UHGV virus genome: UHGV-0374425
DNA: 21,656 nucleotides
DNA from: a virus
Strand: one strand, 5' to 3'
Positions 1-21,656 of this stretch are shown here, piece by piece. Every line of letters begins with the position of its first letter. Position 1 is the stretch's first letter. A program made the position numbers and the translations under genes. The notes beneath the pieces were generated by a model. It was not told the origin of the DNA, did no database searches, and saw only the letters and a program-made list of their open reading frames with translations.

Positions 1-1
1 A

Positions 2-139
2 GCCGGTGGTTTTTCTGCCACCACGATGCTGTTTTCACTGGGTGCCAGCATGATTCTGGGCGGTGTGGCCCAGATGCTGGCCCCGAAGGCAAAAACACCG
101 GATTACCGCGCAACGGATAACGGCAGACAGAACACGTAC
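2..139 (+). pseudogene. I: Inverted internal fragment of tail assembly protein I (about 46 codons) encoded on the opposite strand from the rest of I
   Basis: Plus-strand translation from nt 2 gives AGGFSATTMLFSLGASMILGGVAQMLAPKAKTPDYRATDNGRQNTYL, matching the middle of lambda gpI as recalled; similarity stops at about nt 139. Confidence 0.55.
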
Positions 140-146
140 TTGCTGA

Positions 147-524
147 ACCCCATAACGCCATCGTGGCTCCGGCCGTGAAGAACGACCCCACGATGGCCGC
201 CGCCCCCAGCACAATCTGCAGTCCGCCCTTTCCGGCACCGGCCAGTCGCGGCACAATGTGGATGACCGTTCCCTCACCCAGCTGTTCGTGAAGGCGGGCA
301 TACACCGCCTCCGGTGCCGTGTCCTCACCGGCAATACGTATCTGGTACCAGCCTTCGTTCATCTGACGGCGAAAGCCCGGCACCTGCATCGACAGTGCGC
401 GGATGGCTTCCGCTGCCGTGTTCACATACAGGCTGAGGCGGCGGCCAAATCGTTGTAAATCCCCGTGAAGGCAGATGCGTGCCAGTGGCGGTGACGCCAG
501 ACTGAATGCGTTCGTCGTTGCCAT
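147..524 (-). CDS. I: Tail assembly protein I, N-terminal 126 codons (lambda gpI-like); truncated at an inversion junction near nt 140-146
   Basis: Minus-strand ATG at 524 with GAGG upstream; translation MATTNAFSLASPPLARICLHGDLQRFGRR...GSFFTAGATMALWG matches lambda gpI N-terminus; overlaps the 3' end of K by about 100 nt as recalled for lambda. Frame not in ORF track; nt 1-146 continues without a stop. Confidence 0.65.
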
Positions 525-1159
525 TTTTCGGAATACCTCTCCCGTTTACTCAGTTGTTCAGGCAGATGGTGAAGCAGTTCACCGTTGCCGCAGTAAATGG
601 CGGCATGGTTGGCCACCGATGCGCCAAAGCAGCACAGCAGAATATCGCCCGCCTGTGCAGAGGACAGGGGCACCCGGTAAAAGCCCGTGGCCTCCATATT
701 GTCCAGGTACAGGTTCTGGCCGTTGCGCCACCACTCATCCTCGCGGTGAAAATCCGGCATTTCAGTCCCCGCCAGATGGTATGCATCCCGGAACAGCGTG
801 TAACAGTCCGTCACCCCGTGCGCAAAGCGCCGTCCGGTCAGGTGCGGAACGCAGCGGAATTTGTGAATGTCACCCCGGCAGACCAGCCACCAGGGCAGGG
901 CACTTTTTATCTGCAGTCGCCGGTCTGCCTCACTCAGCCAGGGCAGACCACCGGGATGACTGTGGACCAGCGCCACAATCTCACCCTGCATCTCCGCCCG
1001 CAGCCAGTCTTCCGGGGCAATACGAAAATACGCCTCCGGCGCTGCGGAGATATTCACACAGGGCAGGTACCGCTCGCCCTCCGTCGTGGTTATCACGAAG
1101 CCGCACGACTCCGCAGGCGCACACCGCCGGGCATGCGCCAATATATTGCTATAGAGCAT
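422..1159 (-). CDS. K: Tail assembly protein K (JAB/MPN metalloprotease-like plus NlpC/P60 domains)
   Basis: 245 aa ORF with HSHP (JAMM-like) motif N-terminally and a Cys...His NlpC/P60-like region (DCYTLF ... NHAAIY); sits between L and I; CAGGAG 6 nt upstream of ATG. Confidence 0.9.
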   Translation of the reverse strand: MLYSNILAHARRCAPAESCGFVITTTEGERYLPCVNISAAPEAYFRIAPEDWLRAEMQGEIVALVHSHPGGLPWLSEADRRLQIKSALPWWLVCRGDIHKFRCVPHLTGRRFAHGVTDCYTLFRDAYHLAGTEMPDFHREDEWWRNGQNLYLDNMEATGFYRVPLSSAQAGDILLCCFGASVANHAAIYCGNGELLHHLPEQLSKRERYSEKWQRRTHSVWRHRHWHASAFTGIYNDLAAASACM

Positions 1160-1172
1160 GAGAACTCCTGAT

Positions 1173-1200
1173 AAAAAACCCAGCCGAAGCTGGGTTTGTT
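1173..1200 (-). terminator. Stem-loop (CCCAGC-ttcg-GCTGGG) plus T-run immediately upstream of the K ribosome-binding site; terminates arc-ant transcription or is a late-operon linker hairpin
   Basis: Minus strand reads CCCAGCTTCGGCTGGGTTTTTTATCAGGAGTTCTCATG; an A-run on the other side makes it potentially bidirectional. Confidence 0.6.
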
Positions 1201-1213
1201 AAGTTGTCAATTG

Positions 1214-2128
1214 TCAGTAGCGATGCAGTGAAGGCGGCAACTCTTTGTTCTTAAGCCTTTCCCATGCCAGAAGGTTCGTCGGCCCGTCAGGCTCATAAAT
1301 ATCTATATCCCGCGTGTGATTAATTAAAACGCCCCTCGCCCTCCCGATGGTATACGAGAACTCATAGCCGTAGTCGTGGCATATGCCGGAATAGCCAGAC
1401 TGAATCAGTTTTAATGCGGGATACAACTCACGGAACAATGCCTGTGAGCGGTTAGCATAATCCCATAGCCATACAAGGCTGTCTGTTTCTTTTGCGGAAA
1501 GCTCGTTGGTGCTCTTCTCTTGTTTGCCGATTAACTCTCCTTCAAGCGGAACGCGAGCAGCAAGTGACAGAGCTTCGGTAAACTGCTCCTCGCTGATTTC
1601 TTTGTACGAACATCCAAAATGTGATTTCAGTGACGACCACATGGTGATCATCGCCTTCGCCTGTTTTTCCTTTGGCAGAGACTGACCGCGACTCATGACG
1701 AGTTGTTTAATGGCTTCCTGCTGTTCAGTAGTGATTTTCCCCGGCAACGCCTTTTTAGCTTTCAGTGTATTTCCGTAAGACCCCGTTTTACGAATGGATG
1801 GCAAAACTTCAGCTGTCACCCATTTGCGGAATTTGTGCGGGACTGAACCTTTATTGACGGCATCGCGGCAACGCAGAACCAATGTATACATACCTGATTC
1901 GCTCACAATGCTTAAATTCTGCTCACCACCAAGGGTGTAACTTAAAGTTACTCCCTTTTCATCGTCATCAAGTGCAGTAAGCGCCTTGCGTGAGTTAGTC
2001 AGATTTAAAGCATCACAAACATCTTTTGCTACAAACCACGGCTCACCGCACTTGTTGATGACGCGGATTTCACTGTCGCCGAATTTGAAGATGGTGAAAT
2101 CGTTTTGTGCCTTTGCTATACTTTTCAT
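1214..2128 (-). CDS. ant: Antirepressor Ant (P22 Ant-like, BRO-N type N-terminal domain)
   Basis: 304 aa; N-terminal [16 protein letters not shown]...LDDDEKG...GGEQ...IVSESGMY...[15 protein letters not shown] closely parallels P22 Ant as recalled; AGGAAA RBS; follows the arc-like gene. Confidence 0.85.
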
Positions 2129-2200
2129 GTCAATATTTCCTAATCCGATTTGTTGATACCGAAGCCCTGACTGTTACAGCAGTTGGGGCTTCAACTTTTT
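2129..2200 (+). ncRNA. sar: Candidate sar-like antisense RNA covering the ant ribosome-binding site
   Basis: Plus-strand hairpin GAAGCCC(2161-2167)/GGGCTTC(2186-2192) followed by AACTTTTTAGG in the arc-ant intergenic region, antisense to the ant RBS; possible -10 TATACT at 2117-2122. Matches the position of P22 sar. Confidence 0.4.
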
Positions 2201-2331
2201 AGGCTGCGAATAAGACGCTGCACTATTTCTGAATTTAAAGACCTGCCCTCCTCCTTAGCCTTTTCCTTCAATTTTTCTTTAATCTCTGGCGGGATACGAA
2301 TCCCTAATGGAGCGATATCTCTAACTTTCAT
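2191..2331 (-). CDS. arc: Arc-like ribbon-helix-helix repressor (46 aa)
   Basis: MKVRDIAPLGIRIPPEIKEKLKEKAKEEGRSLNSEIVQRLIRSLKS: strand-helix-helix pattern with GRS.NSEI motif as in Arc/Mnt/CopG; directly upstream of ant. The 87 aa version in the ORF track would run across the operator region and the mnt start, so the internal ATG at 2331 is preferred. Confidence 0.7.
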   Translation of the reverse strand: MKVRDIAPLGIRIPPEIKEKLKEKAKEEGRSLNSEIVQRLIRSLKS

Positions 2332-2345
2332 TTCTTTCCCAATTG

Positions 2346-2430
2346 CTACACCGTGATAACTAAATACTACACCGTGCTTATTTAAAGTCAAAGTTTTTTT
2401 GCCTACACTGTGTAGCAATGCTACAGCGTG
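2346..2430. promoter_or_regulatory. Divergent promoter/operator region with four copies of a CTACAC(C/T/G)GTG motif, one extended to the palindrome CTACACTGTGTAG
   Basis: Motif at 2346-2355, 2367-2376, 2403-2412 (palindrome 2403-2415) and 2421-2430. Candidate -35 TTGACT / -10 TAGTAT on the minus strand for arc-ant; candidate TTTAAA / TACACT on the plus strand for mnt. Confidence 0.55.
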
Positions 2431-2441
2431 CAGGAGGAAAA

Positions 2442-2690
2442 ATGAAAGGTGCAAGAGATATCAGTCCCTTGGGAATTAGGATTCCAGACTATTTAAAGAA
2501 ACGCATTCAGCAGGAAGCGGATAAAAACGGCAGATCAATGAACTCAGAGATTGTGCTTATCCTTCAAAAACATGTTGATAATCTTGATGGCCCTCGCTCA
2601 CTTGAAGGATTCGCTAACCAAGAAGCTGACAAATTCAAAGAGGCGCTGCTTGAGACGCTAAAGACCATGTATGGTAAGGATGAAAAATAA
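2442..2690 (+). CDS. mnt: Mnt-like ribbon-helix-helix repressor (82 aa)
   Basis: MKGARDISPLGIRIPDYLKKRIQQEADKNGRSMNSEIVLILQ...: same length and RHH pattern as P22 Mnt, with C-terminal extension; strong RBS CAGGAGG at 2431-2437; the upstream ATG at 2418 lacks an RBS. Confidence 0.75.
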   Translation: MKGARDISPLGIRIPDYLKKRIQQEADKNGRSMNSEIVLILQKHVDNLDGPRSLEGFANQEADKFKEALLETLKTMYGKDEK

Positions 2691-3226
2691 TGCTGCACAC
2701 AATTCATTTCTTATGCCCCGTTAACACTGCCACTGTTGGGCAACTTCAGAACCACTGTCTCACCGCATTATCTCAAGGCGCAACTGAATTAAATATCCAT
2801 ATATCAAGTCAGGGAGGGGAAACTGCCGCTGGCTTTACTGCGTATAACTTTCTTAAGTCACTCCCTGTTACCGTTAGAACTCACAACATAAGCAATGTTG
2901 AATCCATAGCTAATATCGTTTTCCTGGCTGGCTCAGAACGTTTCGCAAACCCATTATCAAGATTCCTGTTACATCCTCTATTATGGGTCTTTGCCACCCC
3001 AGCCGCCGACCATGCCAGATTGAGAGAGTACGGGAAATGCCTCGATAACGATCTTGATCGCTTCGTTGAGACGTTCAATATCGACATCGGAACCCATATT
3101 AGGTGGGCATCCCTGATAGCAGACTCGACCATTTTGGATGCTAACAAGGCTCTTGAGCATGGCATAATTAATTCCATAAAAACTGCAAGGCTGGCATCCA
3201 ATCAGGCAAACTGGTGGGTTGTTTGA
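2690..3226 (+). CDS. ClpP-family (S14-like) serine peptidase homolog, translationally coupled to mnt
   Basis: 178 aa; NIHISSQGGETAAGFTAYNFLKSLPVTVRTHNISNVESIANIVFLAGSERFANPLSRFLLHP aligns by eye with ClpP [62 protein letters not shown]; candidate Ser, His and Asp at ClpP-equivalent positions; start ATG overlaps the mnt stop (TAATG). Confidence 0.6.
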   Translation: MLHTIHFLCPVNTATVGQLQNHCLTALSQGATELNIHISSQGGETAAGFTAYNFLKSLPVTVRTHNISNVESIANIVFLAGSERFANPLSRFLLHPLLWVFATPAADHARLREYGKCLDNDLDRFVETFNIDIGTHIRWASLIADSTILDANKALEHGIINSIKTARLASNQANWWVV

Positions 3227-3251
3227 TGGGTAAATCATGATTACTCCTTAT

Positions 3252-3273
3252 AAAAAACCCACCTGACGGTGGG
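3252..3273 (-). terminator. Rho-independent terminator-like hairpin downstream of L
   Basis: Minus strand reads CCCACCGTCAGGTGGGTTTTTTAT directly after the L stop. Confidence 0.6.
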
Positions 3274-3282
3274 CATAATCCA

Positions 3283-3981
3283 TTACTGCGAAAGTTTATT
3301 AATGGAAAGGAAACCGCCAAAATTGCCGACATTCCTGCGCAGTTCACACCCGCGCATGCACTTGCTGCATCTGTCCTTACGGATATCCGTGGTGGGTTTA
3401 TCGAACTCATCCGCCACAGCCCCGCCCGTGTAACCACACTCATCAGAGCGGTAAGTCCACATACAGGTATTCGCCAGCATAATGCGACCGGGAAACAGCG
3501 CACCGTCCGTCTCCGTCGGTGTCGCCAGCACAAACGAGGCCGTCATGGCCGTCAGCGCTGATAACTGCTCCACCACCCACCGGTCCGTCAGCTCCTGCTC
3601 CGGGTCTGCCTCCGGATTCCCCGCCACAAAGTTCACCGCATCAAGAAAACGCGCATACACCCGGCGGCGGACCACCGTGGCACCCACCAGGCTCTGCAAA
3701 TCCTCCGCCATCCCGGTGACAAGGCCGAAAAGATTGGACACCGTCAGCGACGGGCGGGCACTGCTGCCCTTTCCGTTCATCTCAAAGCCGCTGCCCTCAA
3801 TCGGGTACGCCTGATATTCACGCCCCTGCCAGGTCACCGGCTCCCCTTTTTCATTCAGCTCATTACAGAAAAAATACCGCTCACCACCCTGCACCGTCAG
3901 GTCAATTTCCCAGAGTACCACCCGCGGTGACTGCTCTGATTTAACCGACTCATTCAGGCTTTCTTCGTTGATCTCCTGCAT
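3283..3981 (-). CDS. L: Minor tail protein L
   Basis: Translation ...VVLWEIDLT..GGERYFFCNE.NEKGEPVTWQGR.YQ.YPI.GSGFE.NGKG...GNFGGFLSINKLSQ parallels lambda gpL along its length; start placed at the ATG of MQEINEESL (3981), preceded by GGTGGA, rather than the upstream ATG of the track ORF. Confidence 0.9.
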   Translation of the reverse strand: MQEINEESLNESVKSEQSPRVVLWEIDLTVQGGERYFFCNELNEKGEPVTWQGREYQAYPIEGSGFEMNGKGSSARPSLTVSNLFGLVTGMAEDLQSLVGATVVRRRVYARFLDAVNFVAGNPEADPEQELTDRWVVEQLSALTAMTASFVLATPTETDGALFPGRIMLANTCMWTYRSDECGYTGGAVADEFDKPTTDIRKDRCSKCMRGCELRRNVGNFGGFLSINKLSQ

Positions 3982-3993
3982 AAACATCCACCC

Positions 3994-4020
3994 ATAAAAA
4001 AAGGGGCGCAATGCGCCCCT
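3994..4020 (-). terminator. Strong rho-independent terminator (GGGGCGCA/TGCGCCCC stem plus T7) ending the porin transcription unit, immediately upstream of the L start
   Basis: Minus strand reads AGGGGCGCATTGCGCCCCTTTTTTTATGGGTGGATGTTTATG. Confidence 0.7.
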
Positions 4021-4177
4021 GATAAAATAGTTCAATTAAAAAATCAAAAACGATGAAGGTAATAAAATGAAAATTAAATCAGCTAATAGCTGATCGCAGT
4101 GACCAGTGGAAATATAACTTCCACTGATACAGGCCATCTGTGAGGGCAGATGGCCTGTATTTATTTACCAGTAATCA

Positions 4178-5341
4178 TCAGAACTGATAAGTCATACCAA
4201 CAGCAACGATATCATCCGTTGCAATGCCCGCATCCCTGGTAAACTTATTCTCATCAACCAGATTGATTTTATAATCAACATAGGTGGACATATTTTTATT
4301 GAAGTAATATTTCGCACCTACGTCAACATACTTAACCAAATCCTGGTCACCATAGTTTTTACCACCTACAATGACATCCTGAGCACGAGACTGCAGGAAT
4401 GCCAGAGATGGACGCAGACCGAAATCAAACTGATACTGCAGTACCGCTTCAAAGTTTTGCGCTTTATCTGCAACTCCTTTATCACCAAAGGTCGTCAGAT
4501 TCTGAGTTTCGGAATATGTTGTAGCCAGGTAAAGGTTGTCAGCATCGTATTTTAGTCCGACTCCCCACATCTCAGCGTGTTTACCTTTTGCAACACTACC
4601 GGAATCAACAACGATCTGCTTTTCAGTCACTTTACCGGTTAAAGGATCAGTTTGTTCAATCGTCAGAGTACCATTCAGACCTTTTTCCTGATTATTGGTT
4701 CGGTCCGCATTAATATATGCGGCAACGATACCAAAACCTTCATATTCATAACTGGCTGAGAAACCGTGACCATCACCATTAGCTTCCCGGAGATCACCCC
4801 GATCATTTTTACCCTGGTACTGTGCCGCAAAATTCAGGCCATCGACAAGCCCAAAGAAATCTGTATTACGATAGGTTAATACCCCGGAAGTACGGGCTGT
4901 CATGAAGTTATCGGTCTGGGTCCAGCCATCACCGCCAAACTCTGGTAATACGTCAGTATAAGAACCAACATCGTACGCAATACCATAGTTACGACCATAA
5001 TCAATGGTGCCAAACTCACCAAACTTCAGACCTGCAAATGCAAGACGGGTTTTATTACCCGCAGCACCCTCTGATTCAGCTTTATTACCAGAGAACTGAT
5101 ATTCCCACTGACCAAAACCAGTCAACTGGTCATTAATCTGAGTTTCACCTTTAAAGCCCAGACGTGCGTATGTCTTATCTCCATCATCCCCCTTATCACT
5201 GGAGAAATAATGGAGTGCAGTTGCACGCCCATACACATCAAGTTTATTGCCATCTTTATTGTATACTTCTGCAGCCTGCGCCCCCGCTGCAAAAATTACA
5301 GCTGCTGCCACAGCTGAAAGTGCCACTGTCATTTTTTTCAT
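4178..5341 (-). CDS. OmpC/OmpF/NmpC-family general porin (prophage moron) with signal peptide
   Basis: 387 aa; signal peptide ending [51 protein letters not shown] and C-terminal ...YVDYKINL...GMTYQF match E. coli OmpC as recalled; AT-rich upstream region; hairpins downstream. Confidence 0.9.
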
Positions 5342-5439
5342 GATTTAATCCTTATTTAAACTGAACTATTCATGCATAGAGATGTCATGAACAAAACTCA
5401 AAATATTGTAAATTAAATTACGGGTTCAATTTTTATTTT

Positions 5440-5454
5440 GTTTCAAAATGTAAA
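5440..5454 (-). promoter_or_regulatory. OmpR-box-like sequence TTTACATTTTGAAAC in the porin upstream region
   Basis: Minus-strand TTTACATTTTGAAAC matches the core of E. coli ompC OmpR sites as recalled; lies about 100 nt upstream of the porin ATG in an AT-rich region (5342-5547). Confidence 0.45.
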
Positions 5455-5547
5455 AAAACAACTTTGATAGCACTTTATGTCAAGACAAAACAAAAATAAC
5501 AAGCAAGCAAATTAATAAACGATGCTTTTAGGTTTTTTCTCAAAAAC

Positions 5548-5889
5548 TTATCTTATTACCTGTTCCATCATACAACTGAAATCGCTGTACCTGGCGTTAT
5601 CCGTAATACTCCACTCCCGGCACACCACCCTGACCGTCCGGTTATGTTTCGGGGGTTTCCACAAAAAGGCACGGTAACCACCATGCCACGATAAAAATTC
5701 ATCCAGCCAGCGCCGGGTCGCCTCATCCGTCACCCGGAACACTGCCTGAAATGTCTTCAGTCGGGCATTCAGTCCCGTCGGTCGGCGCTGTTCATAACCG
5801 TCACCAAACCGGACCCTCACCACCGACGGTTTCTCACTCACCTGCATCCCTTCACGCGGGACCAGATGCAGCGTTTTTATCTCAGCCAC
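5548..5889 (-). CDS. M: Minor tail protein M
   Basis: 113 aa; VRFGDGYEQR...GLNA.LKT...FLWKPP pattern matches lambda gpM; GTG start overlaps the end of H. Confidence 0.8.
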   Translation of the reverse strand: MAEIKTLHLVPREGMQVSEKPSVVRVRFGDGYEQRRPTGLNARLKTFQAVFRVTDEATRRWLDEFLSWHGGYRAFLWKPPKHNRTVRVVCREWSITDNARYSDFSCMMEQVIR

Positions 5890-14934: not shown

Positions 14935-16872
14935 TCAGCCGCCGGACGCACTGCCGTAGTTCACTCCGGTGATCACCGCCACCGCCGCGGTACGGCGACG
15001 ACGCCAGTTGATCCAGCGCTCCGCACGGATGGCCACGCTGCCTGTCTGGAACATGGAAACCAGCTCCACCGGCGACGGCGTGGTACTGTCGCCGGTCGGC
15101 TCAGACTGCATTTCCAGTGATGCCTCGCGGGACATATCCACTGCCACGCCGCCGTCATCCGCCAGATAAATATCCGGGGCATTCACCAGCACCAGCTGGT
15201 CACCCACGTACTGAGAGACAATCACCGGCAGCCCCTGGAAGGTCCCCCCCAGCAGGGTCATGTCCGGATATTCCTTCTGACCCAGCGCATTTTTACGCAT
15301 GGACAGTGCCAGGGCATTTGTGCTGGACATCAGCCAGACCGCACCGGTGGGCTGCAGGTTTGCTGCCACAAACTGTCCAAACGCCGCCTCTGCATCCGCA
15401 TCCGGGTTACCGCTTGATGCCGTGCCCTTCACATCATGGGTGATGGACGCCGGGGAGACATCTGCCACCGCCGCTTTTTTCGGGTCCACAAAGTCTGTAT
15501 CCAGACGCGCCACCACCGCTTCCGCCAGCGCATTACGGACCAGTGCATCAGCAGCCGGACTGGAAAAACGGATCAATTCTTCCGTCAGTACCGCAATGGC
15601 CGACACCTTCGCATGACTGAAGGTGATGGATTCAAAATCAAACTTCGTCAGGGGTTTTGCCTTACCCTCCCCCACCCAGCCGGCAGCACCGCCGGACACC
15701 TGGGCGTGCACACGGATATTGAACGGCACCTGACGAAGTGCAGGGATCCCGCCCTGACCAAATCGCCCGATAATGGTCTGAGGACGCAGGTAATCAATAA
15801 AGTCCTGTGCATATTCCTGATATTCAGACAGGCTGCCTGCCCACTGCGGATCCGTGGTGGTCCCCGCGCCCACTGCCGATTTCAGGACATGATGCAGACG
15901 ACTGTCATCAGGATACTGACGACGGGCCACTTCCAGGGCTTCAGAGCGGACACCTTTAGCCGCAGCCAGTGATTTGGCAAAGCGGGCGAAGCCAATCCCC
16001 TTATCCAGTTTCTGCTCCACACGGATCACCGGCGCAGAAGCCACCGCGGCCACATTCCCGTTACCGGCCTGTTTCACCGGCTGCGCCGTGGCGGCCTTAC
16101 CGGCTTCCAGTTCACGCAGGCGCTTCAGGTGCGCATCCACCTGACGGATTTCCGCTGCGGTGTTGTCGTAATGCTCCTCCTCCTCCACATCCAGCGTGCG
16201 CCCTTCCTCTGCGGCTTTGGTCATGACCTCCTCAAGGGAGGCTGCCAGCGCTGCACGCTTGTTTTCAAAACTTTTAATCTGTTCGCCAATATTCATTATG
16301 GTCTTTTCCTTATGAAAAACGGTTGTTGACTGTGCCGCAGCGCCGGCAGAAGATGCGATTTTCACCACCGGTTTCCGGTTGCCGGACGCGGCAGAAAACG
16401 GGCGGTCGTAAGATTTAATGGTCCGGATGGTGCATTCCGCATTCGCGGGCACGGTAACGGCAGACACCTCCATCAGTTCCCAGCGCAGAAAATGCAGTCC
16501 ACCTCCGTCCAGAAAGGTGTATTCATGGGGACGGAAGCCCACGGACAGCCCCCTGACCAGCCCGGTCTTAATGGCCGCCCAGACCTCATCCAGCCGGGCA
16601 GCCAGTTGCGACGGCATATCCGGTACGGGCTTCACCAGTGTTGCCGTGATTTCCAGCCCTTCGCTGACCCGGCGCACCGTACACTGCCCCACCGGGCGGG
16701 AATGGTCATGCTGCCAGAGAAACGGGATCGCACTGCCAAACTCCGCGCCCTCCGGCTCCAGGATGTCACCATCCCGATCCGGAGAAGGCGTTGACGCAAT
16801 CCCGGTGATCACCCGCTCATCCTCACTGAAGGATTTCACCGTCAGCAGGGAGCAGGCCCGTTTAAGAGTCAC
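14935..16872 (-). CDS. Fused prohead protease (HK97 gp4-like) / scaffold-like coiled coil / HK97-family major capsid protein
   Basis: 645 aa; N-terminal about 170 aa has the prohead-protease pattern (...GIASTP..DRDGDIL..GAF...GLSVGF...ELMEVSAVTVPAN); then a charged coiled-coil segment; C-terminal about 400 aa capsid-like; GTG start with AGGAGG RBS. Confidence 0.8.
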   Translation of the reverse strand: MTLKRACSLLTVKSFSEDERVITGIASTPSPDRDGDILEPEGAEFGSAIPFLWQHDHSRPVGQCTVRRVSEGLEITATLVKPVPDMPSQLAARLDEVWAAIKTGLVRGLSVGFRPHEYTFLDGGGLHFLRWELMEVSAVTVPANAECTIRTIKSYDRPFSAASGNRKPVVKIASSAGAAAQSTTVFHKEKTIMNIGEQIKSFENKRAALAASLEEVMTKAAEEGRTLDVEEEEHYDNTAAEIRQVDAHLKRLRELEAGKAATAQPVKQAGNGNVAAVASAPVIRVEQKLDKGIGFARFAKSLAAAKGVRSEALEVARRQYPDDSRLHHVLKSAVGAGTTTDPQWAGSLSEYQEYAQDFIDYLRPQTIIGRFGQGGIPALRQVPFNIRVHAQVSGGAAGWVGEGKAKPLTKFDFESITFSHAKVSAIAVLTEELIRFSSPAADALVRNALAEAVVARLDTDFVDPKKAAVADVSPASITHDVKGTASSGNPDADAEAAFGQFVAANLQPTGAVWLMSSTNALALSMRKNALGQKEYPDMTLLGGTFQGLPVIVSQYVGDQLVLVNAPDIYLADDGGVAVDMSREASLEMQSEPTGDSTTPSPVELVSMFQTGSVAIRAERWINWRRRRTAAVAVITGVNYGSASGG

Positions 16873-21590: not shown

Positions 21591-21656
21591 TCACGATTTC
21601 AACGCAATGACCAGTTTTGCCAGCCCATACAGCATCGGGGACACAGCAACACCGAC
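21591..21656 (-). CDS. 3' end of an unidentified ORF running off the window edge (possible lysis-cassette gene)
   Basis: Open frame ending ...VGVAVSPMLYGLAKLVIALKS-stop at 21591; hydrophobic C-terminus; only 21 codons visible. Confidence 0.25.
   Translation of the reverse strand, partial: VGVAVSPMLYGLAKLVIALKS

Follow-up and report, generated by a model that had tools for sequence, protein, structure and literature searches.

A private head-to-head junction inside tail assembly gene I of a lambdoid prophage in E. coli, most likely an artefact of sequencing or assembly

The stretch of viral DNA analysed here (UHGV-0374425, 21,656 nucleotides, hereafter the window) begins inside a tail assembly gene, gene I, whose two visible pieces are encoded on opposite strands. 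Our analysis revealed that this gene is colinear with its relatives only as far as its nucleotide 383, and that the next 141 nt, which reach to the very first letter of the window, stand in the opposite orientation, so that the window offers no full-length colinear I between K and J. We regard the junction as a private strand-switch join that is not programmed, and a sequencing or assembly artefact, in-silico pasting included, as its most likely origin, a judgement that we hold with little more than even confidence. As a whole, the window covers the late head and tail genes of an E. coli prophage of lambdoid type, which lie mostly on the minus strand in the order I, K, an Ant/Arc/ClpP insert, L, an ompC-like porin, M, tape measure, portal, capsid and terminase according to the annotation of colinear references. 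The features around the junction are listed below.

1 to 141, plus strand: inverted block, comprising the third base of codon 130, codons 131-176 (AGGFSATT...RQNTY) and the first 2 nt of codon 177 of gene I, with 141/141 identity to the reference gene.
141 to 142, no strand: head-to-head inversion junction, L002 position 24817 joined to 24670, blunt and without microhomology.
142 to 524, minus strand: 5' part of tail assembly gene I, with ATG at 524, codons 1-127 plus 2 nt, identified by a PF06805 match and by alignment to lambda gpI.
422 to 1159, minus strand: intact tail gene K (C40 peptidase, 245 aa), overlapping the start of I by 103 nt.

The identity of the two pieces is clear at the protein level. 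Translated on the minus strand from the ATG at 524 (MATTNAF...ATMALWGS), the first piece is identical to the reference prophage gene and aligns with residues 1-127 of lambda gpI at 65% identity, and the PF06805 Lambda_tail_I profile gives window 144-524 on this strand 61.8 bits against a gathering cut-off of 23.8 (E = 8.5e-17). Moreover, its overlap with K has the same length, 103 nt, as in lambda (K 14276-14875, I 14773-15444). An earlier note on this DNA, made from its letters, had described the piece as 126 codons running from 524 down to about 147; the strand and the start are kept, while the length becomes 127 codons and 2 nt, down to 142. On the plus strand, positions 2-139 encode AGGFSATTMLF...DNGRQNTY, the next portion of gpI, which is identical to the reference prophage and 77% identical to lambda gpI, so that the plus-strand gpI match proposed there is genuine. 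The same note had written this portion as AGGF...NTYL, correctly as a continuation of gpI except for the final L, which comes from the junction codon TT|G at a place where the native residue is F.

A separate observation concerns the start codon of I. In the reference prophages RefSeq begins the gene at a GTG overlapping the stop of K, giving 193 aa (window 425-524; L002 24288-24390). The lambda-type ATG (window 524, 103 nt inside K) gives a 226-aa product, whose N-terminal alignment with lambda gpI starts at residue 1, and it lengthens the Pfam match of I from profile position 26 back to 3. The RefSeq version of I therefore seems to lack about 33 codons at its start.

At the DNA level, window 1-141 matches the I gene of E. 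coli SCU-106 and CP55_Sichuan at 141/141 nt (E = 8e-69), which as an alignment result is far beyond chance, and its orientation is opposite to that of the sequence from 142 onward, which is 100% identical to and colinear with both strains. The orientation break within I is thus real by DNA and protein alignment of both pieces, and the segment to its left is inverted, as had been claimed. Its breakpoint, formerly given as about 140-146, is confirmed in its location and can now be placed exactly at 141|142, after nucleotide 383 of gene I, the second base of codon 128. The junction is blunt, since extension of either block by one base produces a mismatch and the BLAST blocks abut without overlap. 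Beyond it the frame of I runs into antisense nonsense (ASTCSVCRYPL...), which is stop-free up to the window start.

In the L002 frame, 24670 is joined head-to-head to 24817, and the 6 reference bases between the two pieces (GCCAGG in window orientation, belonging to Leu-Ala codons) are missing from the window. A simple inversion would be exactly 147 bp long (L002 24671-24817) with its other end 6 nt to the left of window position 1, and a fold-back with a 147-nt spacer fits the window equally well. This agrees with the expectation of a second breakpoint outside the window, which, if it exists, lies at least 6 nt to the left. If the inversion took place in situ over 147 bp, '...TTATCCAGCGAGGAA CCTGGC' would stand directly before window position 1; if a fold-back or inverted duplication is true, '...GGCGTTATGGGGTTCAGC CCTGGC' would stand there, and leftward of the window one would find the sequence from 142 onward in reverse-complemented form. 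Two other geometries were rejected. One is a plain palindromic fold-back in the visible part, a form of the misassembly that the earlier note had considered: positions 1-141 have no inverted copy elsewhere in the window, and their only pairing is a 71% chance match of 34 nt with 21620-21653. The other is a chimera with the I gene of a different prophage: compared with the cognate allele in the nearest relatives, the block shows 100% identity, and a divergent allele (L024) reaches 96.5%. [quoted passage not shown]

The junction in I has a companion in the portal gene, and the earlier note was right to connect the two, as the portal lesion bears the same signature of a reverse-complement copy. 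In the coordinates of a joined copy of the CP55_Sichuan record, which serve as the portal reference, the feature is as follows.

14159 to 14400, plus strand: reverse-complement block in the portal gene, 242 nt, reference 10869-11110 reversed.

The window is native down to 14158 (reference 11008), then passes through the reversed block, and is native again from 14401 (reference 10959). The block replaces a 48-nt stretch (10960-11007), and the portal flanks are duplicated in inverted orientation, over 91-98 nt on one side and 103 nt on the other (arms 14056-14158 and 14401-14498). The resulting structure is A-C'-B'-A'-C, where A has 91-98 nt, B 48 nt and C 103 nt, with 194 bases more in the window than in the native arrangement, and the portal ORF is split by the reversed block into pieces of 111 aa and 332 aa. 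At the first join, J1 (14158|14159), there is a 6-nt microhomology, ACGGAT, one base before the join; the second, J2 (14400|14401), is blunt. The switch points are ordered 10869 < 10959 < 11008 < 11110, that is, in the 3-1-4-2 configuration, and the return to the forward strand is present. The switch distances are 139 and 151 nt in the portal and 147 nt in gene I. Sharing one signature in this way, the two lesions probably go back to one cause.

The junctions were then compared with public sequences, among which they appear to be private to this window. All of the 4,399 matching E. coli records begin their match at 142 or later, and none of 5,426 complete E. coli genomes contains the I junction. 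Window 1-290 is spanned by none of the 1,859 genomes with a match there, and this orientation is seen in none; likewise, the portal junctions are spanned by none of the 1,244 genomes with a match. No phage record spans the I junction, the exact 32-mer across it is not in the viral, genome or metagenome contig collections, an exact look-up of four junction-spanning ORFs gave no record, and the chimeric gpI tail has no matching protein among 5.8 billion protein clusters. The relatives of this prophage are colinear, as seen in 20 contigs with identical capsid or Ant protein: the native portal arrangement is found in ten contigs with identical capsid protein, and gene I is colinear in the covering loci, namely nine contigs with identical Ant protein and three reference loci. 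The I segment itself is multi-copy in E. coli genomes, with a median of 2 and up to 22 places per genome.

Truncated gpI variants did emerge from the protein search; these are same-strand frameshifts and differ from the junction described here. In fact, the public gpI entries of E. coli assemblies include many such truncations, with tails like ...SRRFFCHHDAVFTGGQHD... (entries P0001, P0002, P0004, P0006, P0010, P0015 and P0032), which suggests frequent indel errors or real frameshifts in the G/C-run-rich part of I. The NCBI draft contig JBMIQG010000012.1 (L015) was tried as a second break at the same place and rejected: the contig is colinear across the junction, and only N-masking is involved, with masked runs at 4989-5801 and 6023-6164 inside K, I and J.

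Outside the lesions the window is very close to its relatives. With both lesions excluded, it differs from CP55_Sichuan by 3 substitutions in 14,017 nt without indels and from three other contigs by 2 substitutions in 9,418 nt, and window 142-5537 is 100% identical to SCU-106. A decaying prophage, one of the two readings that the earlier note offered, is not borne out: once the two rearrangements are set aside, the sequence is free of indels and departs from its relatives by 3 substitutions or fewer over 14 kb.

A phage inversion placed among tail genes calls to mind a programmed invertible segment of the Gin/Hin/Cin/Pin type, of which the Mu G, P1 C and e14 P segments are examples and which here would operate on a tail gene; the location is the one point that speaks for it. 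However, the would-be breakpoints 24670|24671 and 24817|24818 are not bracketed by an inverted repeat, and the hix/gix consensus gives 0 matches in the window at up to 3 mismatches, where sites of about 26 bp would be expected at both ends. No recombinase is annotated in the colinear references over the whole window plus 7 kb leftward, a span that is represented by the DNA of the references. The check for an invertase or flanking inverted repeats, which the earlier note had proposed, thus returned no flanking repeats, no hix/gix-like site and no recombinase gene in those references. Moreover, the inverted orientation leads to a nonsense tail instead of an alternative C-terminus or reading frame, and all other genomes show one orientation. 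A programmed segment is effectively refuted, and we give it next to no credence.

A genuine mutation is a possible, if doubtful, origin of the junction. It would be a real short-range replication template switch in the resident prophage, following the four-point model: the nascent strand would leave at nucleotide 383 of I, copy the opposite strand from 147 nt ahead and return to the left of the window, and the outcome would be either a pure 147-bp inversion (1-3-2-4) or an inverted duplication as in the portal (3-1-4-2). The portal event has exactly the 3-1-4-2 configuration, and in a study that applied a 14-bp lower filter on fragments, both this type and pure-inversion 1-3-2-4 events are documented as genuine mutations in real genomes (PMC5453318). 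The same origin is favoured by the 6-nt microhomology at J1, by a consensus that runs through both portal junctions, and by the identity of the block to the cognate I against 96.5% for the divergent allele, which indicates an intralocus origin. Against it, two rare events would have to stand beside at most 3 substitutions and no indels in 14 kb, the junction is found in none of the thousands of genomes with the same prophage, and the exact distance of 141 nt to the sequence end would be left unexplained. Two of the three junctions (the I junction and J2) are blunt, which also counts against it: template switching is normally microhomology-based, and E. coli is not known to have classical end joining. 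The size of the copies is a further difficulty, since short-range template-switch fragments are typically tens of bases and the copied ones here (at least 141 and 242 nt) lie far above that norm. Quasipalindrome switching, reportedly the subject of work by Ripley, is said to be the classic form in bacteria.

If the template switch were real, gene I would be inactivated, and together with the portal lesion this would leave a defective prophage. Taking both junctions as real, one would have a burst of unusually long-range template switching, in which reverse-complement copies of at least 141 nt and 242 nt were taken 140-150 nt ahead of the fork, twice in 21 kb of DNA that is unchanged elsewhere; this we hold to be unlikely. 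Such a burst could arise, for example, in abortive induction or in rolling-circle replication, and it would point to a fork geometry with about 145 nt of exposed single strand and to a measurable mutational signature in E. coli prophages.

The reading we prefer, a sequencing or assembly artefact, would describe both lesions by the same kind of course. Gene I would be read forward to nucleotide 383, followed by a jump 147 nt ahead to the opposite strand and a reading back; the portal would be read forward, with a jump 151 nt ahead, 242 nt copied backwards, a jump back of 139 nt and a resumption of the forward reading. Both junctions would then be absent from the chromosome of the organism and would represent chimeric molecules or misoriented fragments, such chimeras being made in amplification, library preparation or assembly and gap closing and afterwards fixed in the consensus. 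With two complex rearrangements of one type in 21.6 kb that otherwise show 99.98-100% identity to relatives, beside at most 3 substitutions and no indels, ordinary mutation is in fact not the expected cause, and the absence of the junction from all other sequences compared likewise speaks for an artefact. Published artefacts provide a scale for comparison: adjacent chimeric fragments derived from single-stranded DNA or hairpins lie 50-200 bp apart (PMC8458033), and inverted chimeras of MDA occur about once per 10-22 kb between sites under 10 kb apart, with complementarity of 2-21 nt at 93.5% of the nearby inverted junctions (PMC1855051). The distances in the window, 139, 147 and 151 nt, fall within the 50-200 bp of the former; as to microhomology the window departs from the pattern, the I junction and J2 being blunt and only J1 having 6 nt. 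The jump sizes, a density of lesions comparable to that of the MDA chimeras, the scarcity of other differences and the blunt joins in a species without known classical end joining jointly suggest a technical origin.

For the start of the window, the artefact may be specified further. The window probably represents an entire contig, terminating within the multi-copy tail-gene region of lambdoid prophages; positions 1-141 would then correspond to the last k-mer vertex in a MEGAHIT graph built at k = 141. From the junction to the sequence end there are exactly 141 nt. The final default k of MEGAHIT is 141, and a unitig that enters a k-mer also present natively elsewhere terminates with exactly that k-mer. 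Independent contigs of this prophage end less than about 1 kb away, at window-equivalents +362 (k141_125694), -619 and -647. The coincidence of 141 nt counts only on the assumption that the window is a whole MEGAHIT contig, and we infer both this account of the window start and the artefactual origin as such. With 98 and 103 nt, the inverted arms of the portal stay below 141 nt, which would allow a graph at k = 141 to pass through the portal event. If a de Bruijn assembler passed through both portal junctions, the native adjacency would be absent or rare in the reads; sporadic chimeric reads would account for this less well than a real structure or a clone from early amplification. Another graph error, the misorientation of a spacer flanked by inverted repeats, was tried and rejected: it needs arms of at least k-1 at both breakpoints, and none are there.

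In-silico pasting, a sub-case of the artefact in which gap closing, scaffolding or polishing inserts a read or merged fragment the wrong way round, is quite unlikely when taken by itself. For the portal, a fragment of about 249 nt, centred on a 48-nt gap, would have been reversed untrimmed, and the block in I would be similar and cut by the window edge. Such pasting would suit the portal block of 242-249 nt with its near-symmetrical flanks (98 and 103 nt) around the 48-nt replaced core, as well as the block in I, which measures 141 nt or more and shows a jump of the same size, and blunt joins are what pasting should leave. However, one would have to put the 6 nt of microhomology at J1 down to chance, and we know of no specific tool that pastes fragments reversed in this way.

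The event or artefact is of an ordinary, already known kind and reveals no new mechanism or system. Its main value lies in quality control, since annotation taken at face value would report a broken I and a broken portal gene, and hence a 'defective' or 'decaying' prophage. As every relative is colinear in I and in the portal, the junctions need a check at the level of reads before biological conclusions are drawn from them. Should they prove real, they would provide clean cases of short-range template switching in a bacterial prophage, of unusual length and of modest interest for the mechanism of mutation.

Besides the junctions, several features of the window merit attention. Just downstream of the portal gene, an ORF of 353 aa contains three tandem repeats of 162 nt (54 codons each) at 12561-13046, and since the versions in relatives have 353 aa or 407 aa, prophages differ in the number of repeat copies. 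Non-structural genes interrupt the series of tail genes: by colinearity with L002 19471-23598, the region between L and K (about 1214-3230) holds genes for an Ant antirepressor, YlcI/YnfO, an Arc-family protein and a ClpP-like protease, and the region between M and L (about 4000-5200) holds an ompC-type porin gene. Moreover, three similar ATAAAAAACCC-stem-loop motifs, at 1171-1198, 3250-3277 and 10588-10615, form a family of direct repeats (D3); they are terminator-like hairpins and sit after minus-strand genes, namely K, L and the tape-measure region.

Compared with known systems, the window shares with Mu Gin/G, P1 Cin/C, e14 Pin/P and Salmonella Hin/H the appearance of an inverted segment in the tail region of a temperate phage. 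Those systems invert the C-termini of fibres by means of an invertase and crossover sites, whereas in the window the assembly protein I is hit and neither of these was found. With respect to lambda gpI and PF06805, the pieces in the window are consecutive parts of the homologue with the same K/I overlap, although a break at codon 128 leaves the reading strand without the C-terminal third of the gene. The chimeras of MDA and single-stranded DNA are inverted joins within the same locus, at distances and at a density (one per 10-20 kb) similar to those in the window; they are, however, minority reads with complementary joins, while the window has two blunt joins and carries the structure in its consensus. 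Relative to the usual four-point events, the fragments in the window are longer, the jumps measure 139-151 nt and there is no pre-existing quasipalindrome. In configuration the resemblance is nevertheless close: among the events described by Loytynoja & Goldman 2017 (PMC5453318), the portal corresponds exactly to 3-1-4-2, with two inverted repeats and an inverted spacer, and the junction in gene I fits either 1-3-2-4 or 3-1-4-2.
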